Assembly: GCA_028865725.1 (NCBI GenBank)
Contig: JAGWJP010000004.1
Span: 5,567-69,566, forward strand
Reading direction: 5' to 3'
Source: Patescibacteria group bacterium
GTDB taxonomy: Bacteria; Patescibacteriota; Minisyncoccia; UBA6257; JACRHW01
DNA: 64,000 nucleotides
How positions within the stretch are numbered: the stretch's first letter is position 1; every line of letters starts with the position of its first letter. Shown one piece after another: positions 9,069 to 58,146 of this stretch. Below the pieces are notes generated by a model that was given only the letters and a program-made list of their open reading frames with translations, did not search any database and was not told the DNA's origin. Made by a program: the position numbers and the translations under genes.

Positions 9069-10148
9069 ATGAAAGATTATTATTCTTTGCTGGGAGTACA
9101 AAAGAATGCCTCTGAAGAGGAAATTAAAAAAGCATACCGAAAACTGGCACGCGAATACCATCCTGATCGCGCAGGAGGGAATGAACAAAAGTTTAAGGAA
9201 GTTACCGAGGCGTATCAGGTGCTTTCGAATAAAACAAAACGAGACCAATATGATCGTTTCGGAAGGACATTTGAGTCTGGAGGACAATCCGGCGGTTTTA
9301 ACGGGTTTGATTTCCAACAAGGAGGCAGTTTTTCGTTCGAAGGATTTGATGCGTCAGGACTAGGGGATATTTTTGGTGATCTCTTTGGCACCATGAGGGG
9401 GACGGAAGGAAGACATTCGAGGGGCAGAGGAGACGATGTGCTGCAAGAGGTGGAATTGACCCTGGAGGAAGTATTTCACGGGGTGACAAAATCATTCACC
9501 TTTCAAGATTTTGTAGCCTGTGGAGTGTGCGGGGGCACCGGTGCAAAAACAGAAAGAAAGAGGACGTGCGATCGTTGTAAGGGAAAGGGTGAGATACGTG
9601 AGATGAAAAAAAGTTTTTTCGGCACATTTGCTCATGTTGTTATGTGTCCCGAATGTGAAGGGGTAGGATCCGTTCCTGAAGAAAAATGCACCGTCTGCAA
9701 AGGCGCAGGGCGTATAAAAAAACAGAAAAGTATTTCCGTAGAAGTAACGGCAGGAGTTGAGGAGGGACAGCTTGTTAAGGTGGTGGGGGGAGGGTCAGCA
9801 GGTGAACACGGTGCTTCTTCGGGCGACCTCTATCTTCGTATTCACGTGAAGTCTCACGCCACATTTGTGCGCCACGGTGCTGATCTCGTGACTAAAATTA
9901 ATGTAAACGTCGCAGAGGCGCTGTTGGGAAAGGAGGTGCGCATAAAAAATATTGATGAGGAAGATGTGCGTATCACAGTAAAACCATTTCATGATATTCC
10001 ACAAATCATTACCTTGAATGGTAAGGGGCTCCCTTACCTTAATTCCCGACGCCGTGGTAATCTTATAGGAGAGGTTTATATTACGTTTCCGGGCTCGTTG
10101 AACAAGGAAATCCGAGAGTTTTTGGAGCAACATAAACAGCAGTTATAA
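9069..10148 (+). CDS. dnaJ: Co-chaperone DnaJ
   Basis: J-domain with HPD (YRKLAREYHPDR), G/F-rich region, four CxxCxGxG zinc-finger repeats. Confidence 0.93.
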   Translation: MKDYYSLLGVQKNASEEEIKKAYRKLAREYHPDRAGGNEQKFKEVTEAYQVLSNKTKRDQYDRFGRTFESGGQSGGFNGFDFQQGGSFSFEGFDASGLGDIFGDLFGTMRGTEGRHSRGRGDDVLQEVELTLEEVFHGVTKSFTFQDFVACGVCGGTGAKTERKRTCDRCKGKGEIREMKKSFFGTFAHVVMCPECEGVGSVPEEKCTVCKGAGRIKKQKSISVEVTAGVEEGQLVKVVGGGSAGEHGASSGDLYLRIHVKSHATFVRHGADLVTKINVNVAEALLGKEVRIKNIDEEDVRITVKPFHDIPQIITLNGKGLPYLNSRRRGNLIGEVYITFPGSLNKEIREFLEQHKQQL

Positions 10149-10153
10149 GTGTC

Positions 10154-11200
10154 ATGCCATTTCTGTTGGATATCATAGGTGTCGCGGGAATCGTACTCGT
10201 AGGGTATGTAGTGTTTATATTTTCTCGCGACGCAAAGAAACAGACTGAACAATTCAGTGCACAGTTGCGCGCTTCAGAGGAACATTTACATCAGATGAGT
10301 ACGCTTCTGTTTCAACAAATGAATGAATTGACCACTCAAGTCAATGGCCGGCTGCGTGAAGGCACAGACGCGATGCGGCAGTCAACCGAGCTATTCCACA
10401 CCAGAATGCACTCAATCGGGGCGGAGATCACAAAAGTCAGTGAGATTGCAAAAGATATTTCTTCTCTTAAGGATATTCTCTCTGTTCCTAAAATGCGTGG
10501 CGGACTGGGGGAGTTAATGTTGTCCCAACTCTTATCCGAAATTTTGCCTCACGAACATTTTGAAGAGCAGTATACCTTCCATACCGGAGAGACCGTCGAT
10601 GCGGTGATTCGGTTTAAGGATCGACTAGTGGCGATTGATTCAAAATTTCCTCTTGAGGATTTTGCGCGTTTGACGGCTGCAGAGACAGAGGAGGAAAAGG
10701 CGGGATTTCGTAAATCCTTCCTTCGTTCTATGAAAAGTAGGATTGATGAAATTGCCAAGAAATATATTCTTCCCGACGAAAAAACGTTAGAAATCGCATT
10801 TATGTATATCCCTTCCGAGCATATCTACTACGAATTTATTGTGCGCGGGGAAGATGATATTTCTGAATATGCGTTCAAAAAGCATGTGATTCCTGTTTCT
10901 CCTAGTACGCTCTACAGTTATTTACAGATTGTACTCATAGGGTTGCGGGGAATGCAGATTGAACAACAAACACAGGAAATTTTGAATCATCTTTCACGTC
11001 TTCGCGATGATTATTATAAATTCGAAGAGCCATTCTTAAAAATGGGAAAACATCTTGCCCATCTGCGCTCTGCCTACGAAGATTCTGAAAAACGATTGCA
11101 GCGATTTTCTGACAAACTTCTTTCCATTGAACAGGGACATGTTCGGAATCTTGAGGATCCCACTTTTGCGATAGAACATGCACACAATGAAGACGATTAA
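10154..11200 (+). CDS. rmuC: DNA recombination protein RmuC family
   Basis: N-terminal TM, coiled coil, then GELMLSQLLSEILP...TVDAVIRFKDRLVAIDSKFPLEDF typical of RmuC. Confidence 0.75.
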   Translation: MPFLLDIIGVAGIVLVGYVVFIFSRDAKKQTEQFSAQLRASEEHLHQMSTLLFQQMNELTTQVNGRLREGTDAMRQSTELFHTRMHSIGAEITKVSEIAKDISSLKDILSVPKMRGGLGELMLSQLLSEILPHEHFEEQYTFHTGETVDAVIRFKDRLVAIDSKFPLEDFARLTAAETEEEKAGFRKSFLRSMKSRIDEIAKKYILPDEKTLEIAFMYIPSEHIYYEFIVRGEDDISEYAFKKHVIPVSPSTLYSYLQIVLIGLRGMQIEQQTQEILNHLSRLRDDYYKFEEPFLKMGKHLAHLRSAYEDSEKRLQRFSDKLLSIEQGHVRNLEDPTFAIEHAHNEDD

Positions 11201-12863: not shown

Positions 12864-13157
12864 ATGAAGATTCAACCATTATCTGATCATGTCTTTATCG
12901 AGTCGATGAAGGACGAAATAAAGACAAAGAGTGGTATCGTGTTGCCGGATAGCGCAGAAAAAGAAAAACCAATGAAAGGGAAGGTGATCGCCGTGGGGGC
13001 GGGAAAAGTAAGCGATAAAGGAGAACGAATTGCGATGTCGGTGAAAAAAGGCGATACCGTATTGTTTACTAAATATACACCCCACGAAATCAAAGTGGAC
13101 GGAAAAGAATATTTGGTCGTTCGCGAAAGCGACATTCTCGCGGTGTTATCTGAATAG
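12864..13157 (+). CDS. groES: Co-chaperonin GroES
   Basis: MKIQPLSDHVFIE...KSGIVLPDSA...KGKVIAVGAG...GDTVLF. Confidence 0.95.
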   Translation: MKIQPLSDHVFIESMKDEIKTKSGIVLPDSAEKEKPMKGKVIAVGAGKVSDKGERIAMSVKKGDTVLFTKYTPHEIKVDGKEYLVVRESDILAVLSE

Positions 13158-35179: not shown

Positions 35180-35842
35180 ATGCAGATCGTTTCTCTTATC
35201 ACTAAGGATGGTGTGCGCATCGCAGGGGACTATTATGCTCCGCGTCGAGAGAGTAATCGTGGCGCGTTGTTGATCCACATGATGCCTGCGACGCGAGTAT
35301 CGTGGCGCAGGCTCGCCCCACGGATAGAGGAAGAGGGCATGCATGTGCTTGCAATTGACTTGCGTGGGCATGGAGAGTCGGAGGGCGGACCTCAAGGCTA
35401 CACGTCATTTAGTGACGCGGAACATAAGAAGAGCATCTTTGATCTTGAGGCGGGAGTCGAGTTTTTGTGTCAGAAAGGCGTAGATAGAGAGCACCTTTCT
35501 CTCGTGGGAGCATCGATTGGCGCTAATCTAGTGCTCCAATATGGAGCTACACACAAAGTTTCAGCACTTGTGCTCCTTTCCCCCGGGTTGGACTATCGAG
35601 GCATCACTACCCTTCCTTTTCTCTCGCACCTGGTACCGGGACAACGCGTGTTCTTGGCAAGTTCTGAAGATGATGAGCGAAGCGGAGGCAGTAGCGCAGA
35701 TATGACTCGTACGATTGCCGAACATATCCCTCGGAGCATCGATAAAAAAATCGTTATGTATCACAACGCCGGACACGGTACTGATATGTTCGGTAAGGAG
35801 GATCCGGATCTTGAACAGGAAATTCTCTTTTTTCTGTCCTAG
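35180..35842 (+). CDS. Alpha/beta hydrolase (dienelactone-hydrolase-like)
   Basis: HVLAIDLRGHGES and nucleophile elbow LVGASIGAN. Confidence 0.6.
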   Translation: MQIVSLITKDGVRIAGDYYAPRRESNRGALLIHMMPATRVSWRRLAPRIEEEGMHVLAIDLRGHGESEGGPQGYTSFSDAEHKKSIFDLEAGVEFLCQKGVDREHLSLVGASIGANLVLQYGATHKVSALVLLSPGLDYRGITTLPFLSHLVPGQRVFLASSEDDERSGGSSADMTRTIAEHIPRSIDKKIVMYHNAGHGTDMFGKEDPDLEQEILFFLS

Positions 35843-35849
35843 AAAAAAT

Positions 35850-36275
35850 ATGTTTTACATTTCACCCGCATTAAAAAAGATATCTCGGTTTGCAGTGATC
35901 GGAGTGATGAATACGGCCGTTGATTTTGGTGTGTTGAATCTTGAGCTTTTTCTTTTCCCCGCGCACCTCAATTTAGCGGTGTTATTTAATACCATTTCGT
36001 TTAGCATCGCCGTGACGAATAGTTATTTTTGGAACAAATATTGGACATTTGAAGGAAAAGGGGAAGCACATGCATCCGAATTCTTCGAATTTTTAGTGGT
36101 GAGCGTGATTGCGCTCGGGATCAATGATGCTGTTCTCTACGCATTGACGAGCACCGTCAAAATCGCTACCATCAAACCAACCCTTTTGATTAACGGGGCA
36201 AAGCTCGTGGGGACACTCGTTTCTATGACATGGAATTTTCTTGGGTATCGTTTCATTTTTAGAATCAATGATTAA
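35850..36275 (+). CDS. GtrA family membrane protein
   Basis: RFAVIGVMNTAVDFGVLNLELF...NSYFWNKYWTF typical GtrA-like motif; four TM helices. Confidence 0.65.
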   Translation: MFYISPALKKISRFAVIGVMNTAVDFGVLNLELFLFPAHLNLAVLFNTISFSIAVTNSYFWNKYWTFEGKGEAHASEFFEFLVVSVIALGINDAVLYALTSTVKIATIKPTLLINGAKLVGTLVSMTWNFLGYRFIFRIND

Positions 36276-36276
36276 A

Positions 36277-36310
36277 TCTCTGCGGGGTCGTCTCACTTGC
36301 CCCGCAGAGA
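36277..36310 (+). terminator. Hairpin after GtrA gene (no clear U-tract)
   Basis: TCTCTGCGGGG-12 nt loop-CCCCGCAGAGA perfect 11-bp stem. Confidence 0.4.
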
Positions 36311-36537
36311 TGTAGGGGAATCTATTCTTGAAAACTCCGAAGGTCGGCACTACGTGGAAATTACAAAACTTTTGCCTCAGGGCCGTTTAGAACCGGCATC
36401 ACAAAGGGGATGTGTTTTCAACGAGGAAGGGTCGTCCTTGGAAAACTGTGTGTTTTGAAACATGCGTAGATGCCAAAGGTACGAGAGTCCGCGAAAAACA
36501 AGTAAAAAGATGGCACGGAGATAATGCGTTGAAAGTA

Positions 36538-36635
36538 CTTCTCGGCAAAGCTGCCGGATCGTCTAATGGTAGGACAGCGGCCTTTGAAGCCGTGAATCTT
36601 GGTTCGATTCCAGGTCCGGCAGCTTTGCCGAGAAG
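36538..36635. repeat. Perfect 21-bp inverted repeat arms (36538-36558 and 36615-36635) enclosing the tRNA-Gln
   Basis: CTTCTCGGCAAAGCTGCCGGA is the exact reverse complement of TCCGGCAGCTTTGCCGAGAAG. Confidence 0.8.
36552..36622 (+). tRNA. tRNA-Gln (anticodon UUG)
   Basis: Manual cloverleaf: acceptor TGCCGGA/TCCGGCA, anticodon loop CTTTGAA with UUG, T-loop TTCGATT, discriminator G, U1-A72 as in bacterial tRNA-Gln; no encoded CCA. Confidence 0.85.
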
Positions 36636-36658
36636 AGATAAATCTGGCGGGGTGAAGT

Positions 36659-36711
36659 GGGACAGCGGCCTTTGAAGCTGTATATACAAAGTTCAATTCT
36701 TTTCCCCGCAG
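36659..36711 (+). pseudogene. Degraded partial copy of tRNA-Gln 3' two-thirds
   Basis: 19-nt exact repeat GGACAGCGGCCTTTGAAGC (36572-36590 vs 36660-36678), followed by diverged GTTCAATTCT...CCCGCAG versus GTTCGATTCC...CCGGCAG. Confidence 0.55.
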
Positions 36712-36802
36712 TCACATGGAATTCTCTAGCGTTTACGGTATCGTTTCACAAAATTTTCTTTAAACCGATTTAGAATTTTTGTTTTAAATTTAAATGTAAT
36801 TT

Positions 36803-37060
36803 ATGGAAAAAATAGAAAAATCAAAAGATGTTTGGAAGGGTACAAAATTCTGGACCGATCAGATAAAAGATGCAGGAGTTTATAATAAGATTAAACACTT
36901 TAATGATGTCATAACTGGGAAAGAGGCGCCTCACCCACAAGGATATGGTGATCCGGTTCTTACGGATATTGTGTTGGACGGAAAACGCTGTGATATTTAC
37001 CATACTGATAAAAAACCAGGCGATTCGGGTCATAGAATATACATCCATATTAAAGAATAG
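36803..37060 (+). CDS. Hypothetical small protein (85 aa)
   Basis: ORF only; no signal peptide; lies next to tRNA remnant. Confidence 0.35.
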   Translation: MEKIEKSKDVWKGTKFWTDQIKDAGVYNKIKHFNDVITGKEAPHPQGYGDPVLTDIVLDGKRCDIYHTDKKPGDSGHRIYIHIKE

Positions 37061-37783
37061 TGTCAGGGCAAATAATCTCATTCGTTCATGGCAAAAGCAG
37101 GGTAGCGATAGAAACACTCGCTTTGTTTTTGCAATAAAACTGCTCTAATATCGTTCAAGAAATTAATTCAAAAAAGCCTTCGGCACAATGTTGCTGGAGG
37201 ATTTTTTCTTTTTGAATTCTTTTGATACGATGATCTTGTCCGCCTAACGAAGCAATAGTTATTCAGGCAATATTAAATCAAAGATTGCTTTTCAGAACAA
37301 AGGAGACAGCATATTTGACAGATAAACCGGAATACAATATATTTCATTTTAGTTATTGTTTAAGCAAGGAAAAGAGGGATTTTGTGGGACCAATTAGGAG
37401 ATGTGGTATATCTTTTCGTTCTGTAGAACATTTTCGTTGGTTTCGCGGGAGTATAGTGTCTTTTTGCCTCTTTCTGATATACATACTCCTGGTTCATGTG
37501 TGGAGCATGAGTATCGAATGGCAGAAGGCAATGTGTGTGCTCTTAGGAATCTATCATCTTTTTATCTCTTTTTTGGCCATTATCGTTACTGATTGGGGAA
37601 AAAACAATGGTCCTATTTTTTCCGTTGACTGTATTTGGTTTAATGCGCTGATGGCTTCCGTGTATGCGTGTTTTTTCTTGAGCACGTGTTATGTGTGATA
37701 AAAAGATTCTTAATGTACCCCACTCCAACAAAATGAGTGGTTTTTTATTTTTTGAAGTCTTTAGGTTACAATAAACATGATCT

Positions 37784-39013
37784 GTGAATAATGCACAGGA
37801 ACGTTTAACTATCTTTATTGTTATGGAAGGAAATGCGCCGCATCATCAAAAAATAAGTTCTGAGAAGGCCTTTGAACGGCAATATACTAAACACTACACC
37901 GCAGAGGAACGTGCGCAATTAGCCAAAGAAGTTCGTGAGGAACACGCAAAGATTCTTGCCGAGAAGAAGGGTTTACGAGAAAAGATTTCTTCTTTGAGTG
38001 AGGCAATAGAGGGAAATCTTTTAAAACTTAACGAAGTAGTGAAGAAGGAGAATGATTTAGAAGAGGAGCTTGAGGGGCGCACACAATCATTTCTTCGTGA
38101 ATTTTTGAATAGGAAACGAGTGAAGGCACTGCGGGGCGAGATTGGTGTTACCGAGCAATCTCATGCGCGTATCGAGGAGAAGTATACACAACAGGTAGCA
38201 GAAATAATCGAAATGAAAGCTCTTCTTAGCGACAGAAACCGTCTTCATAATTTGCGCGCGCGCATTCGCGATTTTTATGGCATTTCAAAGGAGGATTTGG
38301 AAAAGAAAAAAGGAGAACGCAACGTGCGTGATGTCAGTACTCTCTATAACGTGCTCGTGGTACACGCAATGAAACACAATTCGAGTTTACTTGCGAGTAC
38401 GCTCACGAAGTTGGATTTCGAAACAAAACTTAAAGTCGTACTCGGTCTTGAGCCGAGTATCGCAGCGTCTACTATTGCAGCAGGCGGGGATATTACAAAT
38501 GTGATTGCATCGCAAGGAGTGATAGTAAGAACGGGTGATATTCAATATGCACGCAGGAGTGATGCCTATAGTGGCGTAGAGGGCGGACTCAGGGGAAATA
38601 GGGTTCCTGCAGGAGGGATTCCGGAAGATCAGAATATTGCGCATGAACTTGATGCCGCTATTTTAAAAAAAGGAGAACAAGGATATAACGAACTTGGCAT
38701 TAAAAATCCAGAAGTCGCAGGGATTTATATGATATTCAATAAGCAAGGCGTGTTTGATGAGAGAGCATCTGCGGCGCCGGAAGAAGAGTTACATGCTGTT
38801 GCTGCACGTTATCACATCCCCGTGTTTGGAATACAGGAGGGTACTCCCCACGAGGCGAGTTACTCTGAAGAAATGAAACATTATGTGCTTGGCAGATCGA
38901 TTACAGTGGAAGAGGTTTTGAATAATAGTTTTCATGTTTCTGATAATGAGAGGGAGAAGCTTATGCAGGAAGTAATCGAGGAAGAAGTAGTGAACAAAGA
39001 ACTGCTGCCGTAG
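37784..39013 (+). CDS. Hypothetical protein with coiled-coil N-terminal half (GTG start; first in-frame ATG at 37823)
   Basis: ORF only; charged heptad-like N-terminus. Confidence 0.4.
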   Translation: MNNAQERLTIFIVMEGNAPHHQKISSEKAFERQYTKHYTAEERAQLAKEVREEHAKILAEKKGLREKISSLSEAIEGNLLKLNEVVKKENDLEEELEGRTQSFLREFLNRKRVKALRGEIGVTEQSHARIEEKYTQQVAEIIEMKALLSDRNRLHNLRARIRDFYGISKEDLEKKKGERNVRDVSTLYNVLVVHAMKHNSSLLASTLTKLDFETKLKVVLGLEPSIAASTIAAGGDITNVIASQGVIVRTGDIQYARRSDAYSGVEGGLRGNRVPAGGIPEDQNIAHELDAAILKKGEQGYNELGIKNPEVAGIYMIFNKQGVFDERASAAPEEELHAVAARYHIPVFGIQEGTPHEASYSEEMKHYVLGRSITVEEVLNNSFHVSDNEREKLMQEVIEEEVVNKELLP

Positions 39014-40085: not shown

Positions 40086-42038
40086 ATGAGTATATTACAT
40101 AATATGGACAACAAAACGCGCGCTGCCGTAACCGGAATTATTAGCATTACTTCAAAAGGAGTGGGATATGTGACCGTTGTCGACTTGCCGGACGATATTC
40201 AGATTGAACCCTCCTCACTCAATACCGCACTTCATGGAGACGAAGTGGAGGTGTTTGTGTTTCCCGCCCTTGAACAAGAGAAGCCAACAGGAGAGGTTAC
40301 CCGTATTGTGAAGCGCGAAAAAGTGCAATTCGTAGGGACTGTTGACAAGCGTGAAGGAGGCGCGGTTGCATTCGTATTACCCGATGATAAGCGTATGTAT
40401 AGCGATATCTTTTTGCCGCCTAAAGAATCAAGAAAAGTAAAGGGTGGGTACAAAGTACTCGTAGAGATCATAAAATGGGATGATCCGAAAAAGAATCCAG
40501 AAGGTCGCGTGGAAAAGCTCATCGGAAAAAAGGGGGAGAACAACGTAGAGATGGAGTCAATCGTTCTTGAGAAAGGGTTTGCGGTCGGGTTTCCCAAACC
40601 AGTCACACGAGAAGCAGACACGATAGGGCGCCATGCGACACCTATTTCTCAAAAAGAAAACACACGTCGTAGGGATTTTAGAAATGCGACGACATTTACC
40701 ATTGACCCTGAAGATGCCAAAGACTTTGACGATGCGCTGTCATTCAAAAGAAAAGCGGATGGTATGATTGAGGTAGGCATACATATTGCTGATGTCTCAT
40801 ATTATGTACGTCCGGGAACTGCTCTTGATAAGGAAGCACAGCGGAGAGGTGTGTCTATTTATCTTGTCGACAGGACGATTCCCATGCTTCCCGAAGTTCT
40901 TTCAAATGGCGTATGCAGCCTAAATCCCAATGAAGACAAGCTCACATTTTCAGCGGTGATTACACTTGCAGAGGACGGCACTGTGCATGAAGTATGGATG
41001 GGAAGGACGATCATAAATTCTAATAAGCGGTTTGTATACGAAGAAGCACAGCGCGTCCTTGATGCAGGCGCAGGACCGTATTACGAAGAACTGCACGCAC
41101 TGAATTCTTTAGCGCATATATTTACGAAACAGCGAAGCGCGATGGGTGCGCTTGATTTTGAACGTGAGGAAGTGAAATTTAAGCTAGATGCGAATGGTGT
41201 TCCGATTGCGGTGACGCAAAAACCGCGGCTCGATATTCATCGGCTTGTTGAGGAGTTTATGGTGCTTGCAAACAAAGAGGTTGCGTCTTACTTAAGCAAT
41301 GAGATACGGCGCATTCGCAAGGGCGCATCTTTATATCGGGTGCATGATGTGCCGAAAAAGGAATCGATGAACGAGCTTCTTTTTTTACTGCGTTCATTAG
41401 GGCATACCATCGAGGCAGAAGGAGGGCATGTTTCCTCCAAAGAATTGAATGCATTATTTGAACGCATCAAGGGGACTTCGGAGGAAGCCTTAATAAAAAC
41501 TGTAGCACTGCGCTCAATGGCGAAGGCGGTGTATTCCACCCGCAATATTGGTCACTATGGCTTGGCACTCGAAAACTATACGCACTTTACTTCACCGATT
41601 CGCCGTTACGCTGATCTCATTGTGCATCGGACTCTGCAGAAGCATCTGGACGGCGGACATCTTACTGATGAGGAGGTGGGTTGGTTGCACAGTTTTGCAG
41701 TAGCGCTCTCAGCTCGAGAAATGGATGCGGTTGATGCGGAGCGTACTTCGATTGCGTATAAACAAGTAGAATATATGAAAGAGAGGGTGGGTAATAGTTA
41801 TGAGGGCATAATTTCAGGTATTGCCAATTGGGGCGTCTATGTGGAAGAGAAAGAAACAATGGCAAGCGGGATGGTGAAGCTCAAGGATATGAGCGATGAT
41901 TTTTATGTGTTTGAAAAAGGAAAGTATTCGCTTGTCGGTACCCATACTCACAAGCGGTATGCGGTCGGGGATTGCGTGAAGATTAAGGTGGTGGGCGCCG
42001 ATCTTGAAAAGCGCACGCTTGATTTTGTGTTTGTATGA
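40086..42038 (+). CDS. rnr: Ribonuclease R (RNase II/R family, VacB)
   Basis: RNB motif HIADVSYYVRPGTALDKEAQRRGVSIYLVDRTIPMLPE; C-terminal S1 domain; N-terminal cold-shock-like OB. Confidence 0.9.
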   Translation: MSILHNMDNKTRAAVTGIISITSKGVGYVTVVDLPDDIQIEPSSLNTALHGDEVEVFVFPALEQEKPTGEVTRIVKREKVQFVGTVDKREGGAVAFVLPDDKRMYSDIFLPPKESRKVKGGYKVLVEIIKWDDPKKNPEGRVEKLIGKKGENNVEMESIVLEKGFAVGFPKPVTREADTIGRHATPISQKENTRRRDFRNATTFTIDPEDAKDFDDALSFKRKADGMIEVGIHIADVSYYVRPGTALDKEAQRRGVSIYLVDRTIPMLPEVLSNGVCSLNPNEDKLTFSAVITLAEDGTVHEVWMGRTIINSNKRFVYEEAQRVLDAGAGPYYEELHALNSLAHIFTKQRSAMGALDFEREEVKFKLDANGVPIAVTQKPRLDIHRLVEEFMVLANKEVASYLSNEIRRIRKGASLYRVHDVPKKESMNELLFLLRSLGHTIEAEGGHVSSKELNALFERIKGTSEEALIKTVALRSMAKAVYSTRNIGHYGLALENYTHFTSPIRRYADLIVHRTLQKHLDGGHLTDEEVGWLHSFAVALSAREMDAVDAERTSIAYKQVEYMKERVGNSYEGIISGIANWGVYVEEKETMASGMVKLKDMSDDFYVFEKGKYSLVGTHTHKRYAVGDCVKIKVVGADLEKRTLDFVFV

Positions 42039-44882: not shown

Positions 44883-46127
44883 ATGTTTGAGACGGCTGCT
44901 ATTTTATTGACTGCCGCGGCAATTTTTTCGTATATTAACGTGAAATATTTGCGGCTTTCCGATTCCGTAGGACTTACTATCCTTTCGATGGCGTTTTCAT
45001 TTCTCTTGGTGATCTGGGGGCGGCTTGGGTTTGAACATATTCAGAGCCAGGCGCTTGCATTTGTTTCGGGGATTAATTTTAGCCAAACATTTTTGGTGGG
45101 CATGCTGGGATATCTCCTCTTCGCGGGCGCATTGCAGATTGATGTGAATGAGTTGTGGGATAATCGGTTCGAGATCGGCGTATTTTCGACGTTTGGTGTC
45201 CTGGCGTCAACGCTTCTTGTGGGACTCTTTACGCATAGCGTGTTGCGAGGGCTGGGGATAGAGATGAGCCTCGTATATTGTTTTCTTTTTGGCGCGCTGA
45301 TTTCTCCCACCGATCCCATTCTCGTCCTTGCTGTTTTGAAATCGGTAGGAGCGCGACGCGGCTTGCAGGCAAAGATTGCGGGCGAGGCATTGTTTAATGA
45401 TGGCGTCGGTATCGTGGTGTTTCTTCTTATCGCGGGCATTGCACAAGGAGGAAGCATAAGCCTGGGGAGCGCGACTGGGCTTTTTCTTGCGGAATCGTTG
45501 GGAGGATTTGTGCTCGGGTTTTTAGCGGGCTATATTGGTCTTCATTTTTTGAATCAAGTCGCGAATTATAAAGTCGAAGTATTGATTACGCTCGCGCTTG
45601 TCACAAGCGGGTACGCGCTCGCCTCGTGGCTTCATATTTCGGGAGCAATCGCCATGATTACCGCAGGATTGCTGATCGGGAATCGCGGCCGGTTTTTTGC
45701 GATGTCCGATGAAGCGCGTCATAATTTGCGCAATTTTTGGGATCTTATTGATGACATGTTGAACTCTCTTCTTTTCGTAATTATTGGGCTTGAGCTCGTA
45801 GTGATTCCTATTTCCGCACAGTATGCTCTCGCAGGCGCATGCGCCATCGCGGTCGTGCTTGCAGCGCGGTGGATGAGCATCGCATTTCCTGTTTCTCTGT
45901 TTAGAATAGCTGGAAGAGCGGTGGGAGAGGGAACGACGCGCATTATGACGTGGGGAGGTTTGCGCGGCGGTATTCCTGTTGCGCTCGCGTTATCGCTCCA
46001 GGCTACGCCGGAGCGAAACCTTATTTTAACGATGACGTATATCGTCGTTGCGTTTTCTATTATTGTTCAAGGCTCCACCATTCGGAGATTTGTCGCATCA
46101 ATTTATCAACATACACCACTCTCATGA
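44883..46127 (+). CDS. Cation:proton antiporter (CPA1, NhaP-type Na+/H+ exchanger)
   Basis: 12-13 TM helices; conserved FNDGVGIVVF and LFVIIGLEL motifs. Confidence 0.8.
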   Translation: MFETAAILLTAAAIFSYINVKYLRLSDSVGLTILSMAFSFLLVIWGRLGFEHIQSQALAFVSGINFSQTFLVGMLGYLLFAGALQIDVNELWDNRFEIGVFSTFGVLASTLLVGLFTHSVLRGLGIEMSLVYCFLFGALISPTDPILVLAVLKSVGARRGLQAKIAGEALFNDGVGIVVFLLIAGIAQGGSISLGSATGLFLAESLGGFVLGFLAGYIGLHFLNQVANYKVEVLITLALVTSGYALASWLHISGAIAMITAGLLIGNRGRFFAMSDEARHNLRNFWDLIDDMLNSLLFVIIGLELVVIPISAQYALAGACAIAVVLAARWMSIAFPVSLFRIAGRAVGEGTTRIMTWGGLRGGIPVALALSLQATPERNLILTMTYIVVAFSIIVQGSTIRRFVASIYQHTPLS

Positions 46128-47005
46128 ATCAACACGATCACGAGATAAAAAACATTCGCACAAAAGCGCTTCTTTTGTGCCCCGACAACGATGCTGAGGC
46201 CCATATGATTTTACTCCTCGCCGAGAAGGCGGGGATTGAGACCATTCGTTCTTCTCAGCCGCATGGCGCACGCCTTGAGTTTGAGGAGGACGTGGAAGAG
46301 AAGGTTCGCGCGACGGGAAAAAATAGGTTGTGGATTGTCGAGATTCCAGGACCCGATACGGAGCGCAGATTAAAAGATCATGGGATTCAAATTACGATTA
46401 TTGATCACCATACGTATGGAAGTCTCGATCGTTTATCGGATCCCATATCAGGTAAGAAGAAACCAAGTTCGCTTGAACAATTTTTGGAGGTGGCGCATAT
46501 CGAAGATCGGGAAATGAAGGAATGGGGTTTTGATCCATATCTTGTGCGTGGGATAGGCATTATGGACGCACGTTTTATCGAGGGGCTCCGAGAAGAAGGG
46601 TACACCCGTGATGAAATAAAACACACATTGCGTTTCAGCGAGAAGCTTATTCAGGAGGTGAATCCGCTTTGGAAACATACCATGGCGCGTGCAGAAGAAG
46701 AGTGGGGCCGTCGCACCAGGGAGGGGTCTTATCTGGTGATACGTTCTCAGTACGGAGGAGAGATACGAGGAGCGCTTTCGTACTGTGCTGCGGCAGATAA
46801 TCAGGATACGGTTCCCACGATTATTAGTGTGGATAATGGCGAAGGAATCAGTGTGCAGAACATTTCTTTTTCTATCGTTGAACGCCTGAAGCGTGCGTTC
46901 CCCGAAGCGAGTTACACATTTGGCTCAGGACGGTGCTGGGGGGTTAGCAATAGAAATCGAGAAGTAAAAGTGACTATTAACGATATTTTGTGTGCCTTAC
47001 TGTAG
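46124..47005 (+). CDS. Degenerate DHH-family phosphoesterase-like protein
   Basis: LLLCPDNDAEAHM (motif I-like), ITIIDHH (DHH motif), FGSGRCWGV (degenerate GGGH); ATGA overlap with antiporter stop. Confidence 0.4.
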   Translation: MNQHDHEIKNIRTKALLLCPDNDAEAHMILLLAEKAGIETIRSSQPHGARLEFEEDVEEKVRATGKNRLWIVEIPGPDTERRLKDHGIQITIIDHHTYGSLDRLSDPISGKKKPSSLEQFLEVAHIEDREMKEWGFDPYLVRGIGIMDARFIEGLREEGYTRDEIKHTLRFSEKLIQEVNPLWKHTMARAEEEWGRRTREGSYLVIRSQYGGEIRGALSYCAAADNQDTVPTIISVDNGEGISVQNISFSIVERLKRAFPEASYTFGSGRCWGVSNRNREVKVTINDILCALL

Positions 47006-47087
47006 CGCGCACTTTTCTTACAAAGAAGAAGAGTTTTCCACATTTCTTGAGGGAGTTTGCTCAAGAAATGTGGTAGACTAGAACTAT

Positions 47088-57300: not shown

Positions 57301-57413
57301 TTGATGCACAACTATTGAGTAAGTCGGGAAGAAACATAATTAAAAACATACACCAGGAAAGGTGTATATTTTGTTTTCTCGCCGCTACAAGTTTCACTTT
57401 TCCACAGTTTGTG

Positions 57414-57448
57414 TGTATACAGAATGGTTTATAATGTGTATATACACA
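57414..57448 (+). promoter_or_regulatory. Candidate LexA operator(s) overlapping lexA promoter: TGTATACA (57414-57421), TATAAT -10 (57430-57435), perfect palindrome TGTGTATATACACA (57435-57448)
   Basis: 14-bp perfect palindrome of TGT-N8-ACA type with AT-rich centre abutting -10 hexamer, 18 nt upstream of lexA ATG. Confidence 0.45.
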
Positions 57449-57465
57449 TCTTCTTACCCACTCTT

Positions 57466-58146
57466 ATGTCACACGTATCTCACAAACCAACTAAACTTCA
57501 ACAAAAGGTGCTCGATGTTATTATGCGCTATCATGAAAAACACAATGCGGCACCCACTATTTATGAAATCCAGAAAAAACTTGCGCTTATCTCGTCTCGC
57601 TCGGTCACTCAGCATCTTGAAGCGCTCGAGAAAAAAGGATTCATTCACCGTACGCGATATAAAAACAGGGGTATTATGTTAACGAGTACTCTCAAAGATG
57701 GGGAGATGGTACTGTTACCCGTATTTGCTTCAGCAGGATGTGGAAGTCCTGCGGTGATTGCCGAGCGCGCGTTCGATGAGTTTATGGAAGTTGCGTCCAA
57801 CCTCCTTAAAGGGAAAAAGAAAGAGGACTTGTTTGTGATGAAGGCCATAGGAAATTCAATGAACGAAGCCGGAATTCGGGACGGAGATTATGTGCTCGTC
57901 GAGCGTATCGTCGATCAAGATTTTGAAATGGGAGATTCAGTGGTAGCTATCATTGATGATCATGCGGTTATCAAGCGTTATACTCGCGCGGATGATTTGA
58001 TTATTCTGCAGCCTGTCTCATCGGATCGTGCGCACCGCGCTATTATTTTAGGGGGTGATGCGACGTATAAAATTTTTGGCAAAGTTATCCGCACAATCCA
58101 TATGCCCAAAACACGGGATATTCAGTACGCACCTGTGGTATCATAG
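57466..58146 (+). CDS. lexA: LexA repressor (S24 peptidase)
   Basis: N-terminal winged HTH (TIYEIQKKLALISSRSVTQHLEALEKKGFI), cleavage-site region, catalytic GNSM and K in C-terminal domain. Confidence 0.85.
   Translation: MSHVSHKPTKLQQKVLDVIMRYHEKHNAAPTIYEIQKKLALISSRSVTQHLEALEKKGFIHRTRYKNRGIMLTSTLKDGEMVLLPVFASAGCGSPAVIAERAFDEFMEVASNLLKGKKKEDLFVMKAIGNSMNEAGIRDGDYVLVERIVDQDFEMGDSVVAIIDDHAVIKRYTRADDLIILQPVSSDRAHRAIILGGDATYKIFGKVIRTIHMPKTRDIQYAPVVS

Follow-up and report, generated by a model that had tools for sequence, protein, structure and literature searches.

In a 64,000-nucleotide stretch of contig JAGWJP010000004.1 from a Patescibacteria group bacterium (assembly GCA_028865725.1; this whole stretch is referred to here as the window), a gene for tRNA-Gln(UUG) lies within a perfect inverted repeat. 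We report that this repeat forms the closing stem, itself conserved, of a tRNA-Gln gene, and that this tRNA gene is joined to the end of a small GIY-YIG nuclease gene, which is decayed in the window. Sequence comparisons with homologous loci in other bacteria of the candidate phyla radiation (CPR) indicate that the helix is a real, evolutionarily maintained structure that begins flush with the acceptor stem. As to its nature, we give about an even chance to the proposal that it belongs to an insertion cassette associated with a nuclease and equipped with a replacement tRNA of its own, with the stem acting in RNA.

The repeat is the longest local inverted repeat within the 64 kb, and its arms are fully complementary over 21 nt, as the earlier note on this DNA had claimed (Table 1). 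The duplex consists of the 7-bp acceptor stem, a pair between C-1 and G73, and 13 more pairs. All 14 of the additional base pairs that the note had described are therefore present, but they are not formed by the flanks entirely, since the discriminator base G73 belongs to the duplex and leaves 13 pairs to the flanks proper. Fourteen extra Watson-Crick pairs have a probability of 3.7e-9 by chance, and the predicted RNA fold, which had been suggested as a check, retains the cloverleaf on top of the 21-bp helix (z = -5.2). The tRNA is the only one encoded in the window, scores 61.2 bits against the Rfam tRNA model (threshold 29), is assigned the anticodon ttg by ARAGORN, and has both the U1-A72 pair and the G73 discriminator (T 36552, A 36621, and G 36622) that are identity features of bacterial tRNA-Gln. 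Positions 74-76 are CTT, and CCA is not encoded. No second copy of the 14-nt arm is present in the 64-kb window, even with 2 mismatches allowed, and a miniature inverted-repeat transposable element or other dispersed palindromic repeat was ruled out because the arm is confined to the tRNA-Gln locus in the 64 kb.

Table 1. Features of the tRNA-Gln module in the window, with the homologous helices and the layout of locus L152.
Feature	Position	Strand	Evidence or sequence
Inverted repeat, 5' copy	36538-36558		CTTCTCGGCAAAGCTGCCGGA; repeat finder, 21 nt, 100% complementary, spacer 56 nt
Inverted repeat, 3' copy	36615-36635		TCCGGCAGCTTTGCCGAGAAG
tRNA-Gln(UUG)	36552-36622	+	71 nt including discriminator G73; ARAGORN, Rfam tRNA
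5' arm of helix	36538-36551	+	CTTCTCGGCAAAGC; last codons (L-L-G-K-A) of nuclease frame
3' arm of helix	36623-36635	+	CTTTGCCGAGAAG; with G73 pairs to positions -1 to -14
GIY-YIG nuclease pseudogene	36310-36551	+	translations, tblastx, jackhmmer, DNA alignment to L152
Nuclease remnant, frame one			...SILENSEGRHYVEITKLL...RLE
Nuclease remnant, frame two			RHHKGDVFSTRKGRPWK...REKQVKRWHGDNALKVLLGKA
Mini-hairpin	36273-36314	+	15-nt arms, 93% complementary
D-arm-less tRNA-Gln-like copy	36646-36711	+	TGGCGGGG-TGAA-GTGGGAC...CCCCGCAG
Decayed duplicate of GtrA gene 3' end	36714-36790	+	original 36228-36275; beyond tRNA block
Helix arms, window			5' cttctcggcaaagc; 3' gctttgccgagaag
Helix arms, L140			5' ttcctcggcaaggc; 3' gccttgccgaggaa
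Helix arms, L152			5' tttttaggcaaagc; 3' gctttgcctaaaaa
Helix arms, L154			5' tttcttgctaaagc; 3' gctttagctggaaa
L152 layout, first part	9969-9996		mini-hairpin TGCGGGA-TCGTCT-AACTTG-CCCCGCC, then 6 nt, then nuclease ATG
L152 layout, second part			5' arm as final nuclease codons, then tRNA-Gln, then 3' arm ending with TAA stop
L152 layout, third part			~10 nt, then TGGCGGGG-TTAA-GTAGGAC... up to tRNA 3' end

The source is a metagenome-assembled genome (MAG), and the 3' arm is covered by no independent short-read contig, including in a search via the downstream open reading frame (ORF), and is seen in MAG contigs only; both points would agree with an assembly artefact. However, Logan contig L030, an independent assembly of another run (SRR32006840), is identical to the window over 35290-36586, which spans the 5' arm, its junction with the tRNA-Gln gene, and the 5' half of that gene, and the same architecture is found in unrelated NCBI, ENA, and JGI assemblies. 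The strain of the window is present in the communities of runs SRR32006840 and SRR32006850. We regard an artefact as scarcely credible.

A GIY-YIG nuclease gene ends in the 5' arm of the helix, which supplies its final five codons (L-L-G-K-A). The window copy is not an intact reading frame: a TAG directly follows the ATG at 36310, alignment with the DNA of the related locus L152 reveals a deletion of 7 nt close to the start, and a frameshift is located near 36380. The C-terminal half (36391-36551) stays in frame and continues through the tRNA to a stop codon at 36673-36675. The 53-aa C-terminal fragment has no Pfam match by itself, whereas its intact homologues match PF01541, and it is related to these by jackhmmer with E values of 9e-21 and 4e-12; a tblastx comparison of window positions 36394-36642 with locus L140 gives 53% identity over 83 codons (E = 4e-21). 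In L140 the frame is a GIY-YIG domain (PF01541, 53.5 bits) without a stop until past the tRNA and the 3' arm, and in the relatives generally the nuclease genes are intact, with frames that likewise take in both the tRNA and the 3' arm.

A protein search with the read-through frame recovered six distinct clusters of intact GIY-YIG proteins (P0121-P0126) of 110-118 aa, all of which translate through tRNA-Gln, reading '...LGKA-AGSSNGRT...SPA-ALPK/R...'. The variant P0122 reads 'LAKA ... ALAG' (G to A and P to A), which is the protein image of a swap from G:C to C:G in the stem. These CPR nucleases consist of a catalytic domain of ~80 aa and a tail encoded by the tRNA, and have no recognisable DNA-binding domain. 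All six clusters are deposited in public data with a translated tRNA as their last ~30 residues, which is an annotation artefact.

Loci L152/L153 and L154 provide the DNA for two of the six protein clusters, and together with L140 and the window give four homologous helices. In a fixed alignment of these, both partners differ at 8 of the 15 extension pairs, and 95% of cells remain paired. None of the shuffles reaches the observed values on four of five covariation measures, 1 of 500 does so on the fifth, and slid controls give 35-47% paired cells and 0-2 pairs changed on both sides over the whole structure. These compensatory changes among homologous loci show that the helix is evolutionarily maintained, and coincidence, which the earlier note had held open, does not explain it. 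The same count over eleven helix-bearing genes from the survey described below gives 14 of 16 pairs, but these rows were pre-selected for pairing and many of their arms are non-homologous; this count is biased by selection, and the case thus rests on the four homologues and on the bimodal distribution of flank pairing.

The survey was of metagenomic tRNA-Gln genes. A first scan with the whole tRNA pattern gave zero matches, and a scan with a 30-nt core pattern gave 120 loci with 114 distinct tRNA-Gln genes that have an intact acceptor stem in a fixed register; the sample is centred on tRNA-Gln and says nothing on other isoacceptors. Flank pairing over the first 14 positions is bimodal, with a main group at 2-9 (mode 5) and 12 of the 114 genes at 10-14, where ~1.5 genes are expected by chance; about 10% of the sampled related CPR tRNA-Gln genes carry a leader-trailer helix. 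Eleven of the 12 strongly paired genes have G-2 C-1 and G73 C74, with helices that end 13-18 bp from the tRNA, and these eleven together with L152 and L154 make up 13 helix-bearing loci. CCA is encoded in none of the 13, as against 45 of 103 ordinary genes. Arms from different lineages are often unrelated in sequence and are still complementary. The 31 other tRNAs on the surveyed contigs show background pairing only; the earlier note had taken a lack of arms at other tRNAs as grounds for refutation, but this is not diagnostic, because arms are absent in close relatives and homologous arms are present in more distant lineages.

The same note had offered a second account, in which the arms are recombination sites around a 56-bp core; in its fuller form they would be sites at which a site-specific recombinase inverts or excises the tRNA core, or attachment-site remnants of an integrated element. 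Genes for tRNAs are common integration targets, and several ordinary CPR tRNA-Gln genes are followed, 100-250 nt downstream, by short copies of the tRNA 3' end, a classic sign of integration, making the locus a general insertion hotspot. However, there is no recombinase gene nearby, no integrase or invertase is among the annotated genes of the window, the 64 kb contain no further tRNA-Gln fragments elsewhere, the core has the same orientation at 13 of 13 helix-bearing loci, and a 56-bp spacer is very short for inversion. The arm sequences, moreover, differ between lineages yet stay complementary, which points to a nucleic-acid helix rather than a protein-binding site. We consider this account very improbable, and an attachment site of an integrative element was ruled out by the lack of both an integrase and a distant tRNA fragment in the window. 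The downstream copies are exact over 16-20 nt and were seen at L058, L073, L099, L106, and L128.

The modules of the window, L152, and L154 align block by block, and the mini-hairpin upstream of the nuclease gene and the D-arm-less tRNA-Gln-like copy downstream of the tRNA are therefore conserved parts of the module and not local debris. The core of the mini-hairpin (36281-36308) reads TGCGGGG-TCGTCT-CACTTG-CCCCGCA-G and corresponds to tRNA-Gln positions 1-13 joined to the 3' strand of the acceptor stem; its helix extends into the flanks, beginning at the stop codon of the GtrA gene and ending just 5' of the nuclease start codon, and the same block is found directly 5' of the GIY-YIG start codon in L152 and L154. 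The D-arm-less copy has an anticodon arm identical to that of the intact window tRNA at 23 of 25 positions, scores 22.1 bits against the Rfam tRNA model over 36647-36710 (below threshold), is conserved in L152 and L154, and is visible as '...GGVK' in P0121 and P0122. ARAGORN reports the corresponding L152 relic (10338-10403) as a second tRNA-Gln of 66 nt, which is an annotation error.

The layout is clearest in L152, where a perfect 11-bp inverted repeat, made up of CCCCGCCAAAT and ATTTGGCGGGG, encloses everything between the partial copies. The outer pieces (positions 1-15 and 18-71) sum to one tRNA-Gln split in the D loop and, where present, are identical to the inner tRNA. Partial tRNA-Gln copies are found nearby in 8 of 11 helix-bearing genes and in 4 of 103 ordinary genes (Fisher p = 1e-7). 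Four loci (L036, L048, L089, and L145) have no nuclease gene and show clear nested layouts, in which a second tRNA-Gln copy is interrupted, at the D loop, the anticodon arm, or the position corresponding to 37/38, by a long imperfect hairpin with an intact tRNA at its tip. The outer copy in these loci keeps T at -1, CCA, and a terminator, yet it is disrupted or decayed; interrupted outer copies of this kind are missed by the Rfam tRNA model. In L048 a long perfect hairpin at ~12957-13051 gives sub-threshold matches to many microRNA precursor models on both strands.

In at least 8 lineages a GIY-YIG gene overlaps tRNA-Gln or ends 4-7 nt 5' of it. Copies of tRNA positions 1-12 lie upstream of the gene in L066, L077, and L131, which have no flush helix; in L066 and L077 positions 58-71 recur downstream of the intact gene as well, and in L077 and L131 a GIY-YIG gene abuts it, so that these three may be nested modules of another type. 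In L140 a 23S_rRNA_IVP gene (300-629; PF05635, 124.5 bits) is situated just upstream of the GIY-YIG-tRNA module, and a hairpin-rich direct repeat of ~60 nt (GACCTTTTCCGCCGGAGGCGGACTCGC...GGGAG; 752-812 and 1181-1240), apparently located within the anticodon loop of an outer tRNA copy, flanks the unit of nuclease and tRNA.

Rfam intron models have no match at E up to 1 in 36200-36850, nor at E up to 10 in nine related loci, and a group I intron in the tRNA gene was ruled out since there is no match to a ribozyme core. An archaeal-type intron or split tRNA of the bulge-helix-bulge (BHB) kind was also ruled out, because the duplex is perfect and without bulges and the gene content is bacterial.

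The module has a patchy distribution. The window has the gene content of a small-genome bacterium, and its RNase R (40086-42038) is 100% identical to a protein on contig JAGWUQ010000006.1 of MAG GCA_028868355.1, with the next relatives at 70-71% and Candidatus Azambacteria at ~67%. The closest relatives (L017, L018, and L020) carry an ordinary tRNA-Gln in the syntenic position between an alpha/beta-hydrolase gene and RNase R, as likewise do L022, L023, and Azambacteria. In these syntenic genes the leader is A/T-rich and ends in T, most have a -10-like hexamer 11-14 nt upstream of the tRNA, and most encode CCA, L022 and L023 being the exceptions. Ten GTDB species whose tRNA-Gln core is identical at all 48 positions specified in the 51-nt search pattern (an eleventh, L013, is cut at a contig end) have at most one G.U at -1:73 and no helix, and several of them encode CCA. 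The module is thus absent from L017, L018, and L020, which are close to the window (seryl-tRNA synthetase, SerRS, 78-80% identity; coupling ATPase 64-73%), and present in the much more distant L152 (36% and 45%). With the tRNA-encoded tail excluded, the nucleases are 46-51% identical; lateral transfer was considered from this, but nuclease against housekeeping similarity (46% vs 36-45%) is not decisive. A nuclease beside a conserved target gene and patchily distributed among relatives is what is seen in homing elements, and the distribution fits their cycle of gain, decay, and loss without being proof of lateral transfer by itself. A phage origin was also considered and rejected, as there was no match in the phage collection and the matches in viral contigs are unrelated phage tRNAs.

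Absence from close relatives at first favoured an explanation in which a unique and young template-switch event copied one flank onto the other, giving a neutral repeat with neither function nor history. The arms are perfect and contain no G.U pairs, the extension is lacking in all 14 relatives compared (the ten GTDB species and the four closest syntenic relatives), and the only -10-like hexamer of the window (GATAAT) lies 26 nt upstream of the tRNA, rather than at the 11-14 nt of most close relatives, which would fit an insertion of 14 nt. That hexamer, however, lies inside the nuclease reading frame, the helix class recurs in ~10% of the sampled genes, and L140, L152/L153, and L154 have homologous arms that differ in a compensatory way, as the six protein clusters also imply. 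The homologous arms with paired changes contradict this explanation, which was dropped on their account, and we now consider it improbable. Intergenic flanks were compared with those of close relatives to tell which arm is ancestral, and nothing alignable was found.

According to the proposal that we prefer, a cassette in the tRNA-Gln locus of a Parcubacteria-type CPR bacterium would interrupt or have replaced the resident gene, as suggested by the L152 flanking pieces that sum to one split tRNA-Gln, and would supply a working copy. In the window the nuclease gene is decayed and the tRNA and the stem are intact. Because there is no promoter at the usual place and no encoded CCA, the tRNA is presumably transcribed inside a longer RNA, which would carry the nuclease frame and the tRNA look-alike fragments. 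The leader-trailer duplex of 14-15 bp would clamp the ends of the real tRNA so that it folds as a separate unit, and would block RNase P and 3' trimming; an RNase III-type double-strand-specific endonuclease would probably cut the stem first, with RNase P, 3' trimming, and the CCA-adding enzyme then completing maturation. In relatives with a live nuclease the stem may also tie translation of the nuclease to tRNA processing, because the frame has no stop until after the 3' arm. The probable origin of the stem itself is fold-back (template-switch) copying for which the acceptor stem served as primer.

The long flanking helix and its covariation are features shared with stems that RNase III processes. 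RNase Z acts on CCA-less precursors in bacteria such as Bacillus subtilis, which fits the uniform absence of CCA, and we speculate that if an RNase III-type enzyme made a staggered cut at +1, the 3' end left would be C74, fitting the invariant G-2:C74 pair. Just two leader-to-3'-end pairs that extend the acceptor stem are enough to lower kcat/Km of bacterial RNase P ~13-fold, and the extension must be unwound (PMC9433436); an extension of 14 bp should hence block direct access of RNase P, as the earlier note had also supposed, which makes a double-strand-specific first cut reasonable. As the nuclease frame of the window is dead, no ribosome can open the helix, and if this is the sole tRNA-Gln(UUG) of the cell, then the closed form must be one that the cell can process.

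The strongest rival accepts the same architecture and places the action of the stem in DNA, where the palindrome would be kept perfect by template-switch conversion between the arms; a hairpin or cruciform may be cut by a structure-specific GIY-YIG nuclease, with the breaks copying or rearranging the cassette, and the tRNA would be matured in spite of the stem and not through it. The nucleases are bare catalytic domains, and structure specificity is a property of stand-alone GIY-YIG/URI nucleases of the Slx1 type. Rearrangement scars and partial duplications sit at the helix-bearing loci, and the non-Watson-Crick positions in the 13 helices comprise 7 G.U and 12 A.C, which is no bias towards G.U on the sense strand, in a sample too small to be informative (n = 19). 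Template switching is known to create, lengthen, and homogenise inverted repeats (PMC8794818), two further papers agree with this (PMC8604942, PMC13100816), and tRNA genes are duplicated by breaks that SegB induces (PMC13096335). Against an action in DNA, the helix always begins flush with the mature tRNA ends, the stem of the window is still perfect despite a dead nuclease gene, and a perfect 14-bp duplex in the precursor of an essential tRNA should be counter-selected unless the cell can process it. The lack of CCA in all 13 helix-bearing genes, although the helix could accommodate one, likewise points to RNA 3'-end processing and not to DNA. We judge this rival possible but doubtful.

A number of points nevertheless weigh against a replacement-tRNA cassette with a stem acting in RNA. 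Without a G.U bias, the covariation would be explained no less well by a DNA hairpin than by an RNA helix. GIY-YIG-tRNA modules without a helix occur at L005, L143, L131, and L077, so fusion and stem are separable and the stem is not required for fusion. In the window itself the outer pieces could be read either as one split gene or as two decayed tandem copies, an ambiguity that is absent from L152, L036, L048, and L145. Annotation and Pfam scans of the window genes found neither RNase III (rnc) nor a gene for a tRNA-processing enzyme. Finally, the absence of a recognisable DNA-binding domain from nucleases of ~80 aa leaves site-specific homing as a proposal.

We advance a more specific version tentatively, and consider it possible but doubtful. 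A minimal GIY-YIG nuclease would home into the D-loop region of tRNA-Gln and avoid lethality by way of a replacement tRNA fused in frame; the conserved stem of 14-15 bp would make release of the tRNA depend on double-stranded RNA cleavage and couple translation to maturation; and the processed nuclease mRNA would lack a stop codon, thereby limiting the nuclease. Such elements would constitute an undescribed class of selfish element in CPR bacteria.

The nearest published case is that of the non-intron insertions in CPR rRNA genes, which encode GIY-YIG and IVP proteins, alongside insertions of the intervening sequence (IVS) type, whose stems RNase III cleaves with no religation (PMC11270868). 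As in those, the insert occupies a structural RNA gene, is closed by a long stem, and is not a group I or group II intron, and the same two protein families are involved, GIY-YIG here and 23S_rRNA_IVP beside the L140 module. Here, by contrast, the host gene is a tRNA, which is non-functional in pieces, and the insert carries a complete replacement tRNA to which the nuclease frame is fused; tRNA genes are nowhere mentioned in the rRNA study (PMC11270868). A second parallel is the free-standing GIY-YIG homing endonuclease SegB, situated in the tRNA cluster of phages T4 and T6, where breaks and recombination duplicate the segment of tRNA and nuclease (PMC13096335). At both loci the GIY-YIG gene is directly beside a tRNA gene, and the SegB locus also has microhomology between the tRNA 5' end and the nuclease 3' end. 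SegB is larger and phage-borne, whereas the CPR proteins are ~80-110 aa, are chromosomal, and abut or overlap the tRNA, with this subfamily joined to it by a conserved stem.

In the precursors of 16S and 23S rRNA, pairing of the flanks similarly extends the terminal helix into a long one, which shows covariation; those stems are cut by RNase III, whereas an RNase III-type cleavage of the tRNA-Gln stem is one that we infer by analogy. To our knowledge, no natural bacterial tRNA with a leader-trailer processing stem of its own is known. Archaeal split, permuted, and intron-containing tRNAs (PMC3978253, PMC4390854) are also disrupted genes with long complementary flanks holding the pieces, and the insertions in the D loop and at 37/38 (L036, L145, and L152) recall non-canonical archaeal intron sites; unlike the archaeal BHB tRNAs, these loci are bacterial, the window helix is perfect and bulge-free, and the outer pieces are decayed in most loci, which argues that they are not spliced back together. 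Hairpins produced by template switching (PMC8794818) resemble the stem in having a perfect extension that starts exactly at the end of an existing stem, as in fold-back priming. Template switching accounts for the origin of the stem, but not for the persistence of a stem of the same length with paired changes across lineages in which SerRS is 36% identical. Literature on GIY-YIG nucleases and tRNA in CPR or Patescibacteria, and on tRNA genes flanked by inverted repeats, was not found to describe the arrangement; the coverage was incomplete, and an earlier description is possible.

If the proposed cassette is confirmed, it would be a tRNA-gene counterpart of the nuclease-bearing CPR rRNA insertions and would illustrate how, by bringing a spare copy, a selfish insert can reside in a gene that does not tolerate fragmentation. 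It would also be a natural bacterial tRNA precursor with an acceptor stem locked in a 21-bp duplex that RNase P should be unable to open, and would make it possible to test directly which enzyme, RNase III or another, feeds into the maturation of tRNA in reduced genomes. In practical terms, gene callers list the read-through frames as proteins of 110-118 aa and tRNA finders count the D-arm-less relic as a second tRNA-Gln, and both errors have already entered public records (P0121-P0126, and ARAGORN on L152).

The surroundings of the module in the window have some further features. The last ~15 codons of the GtrA-like gene (TWNFLGYRF...) are repeated in decayed form (TWNSLAFTVSF...) past the tRNA module, and it looks as if the module was inserted into the 3' end of GtrA or imported together with it; L017, L018, and L020 have no GtrA gene at the tRNA-Gln locus. 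Between the module and TspO are two ORFs, 37285-37698 (137 aa) and 37784-39013 (409 aa), with no Pfam match. Both of these, together with ORF 36803-37060 and TspO, are missing from the L017 interval, where RNase R directly follows the tRNA. The second-longest local inverted repeat of the window, probably a terminator-like element, is a hairpin at 47032-47079, just after ORF 45950-47005; its loop is 8 nt long and its 20-nt arms are 90% complementary. The window also contains a LexA gene (57409-58146) and an RmuC-family gene (10154-11200), and RmuC has been linked to limiting rearrangements at short inverted repeats.

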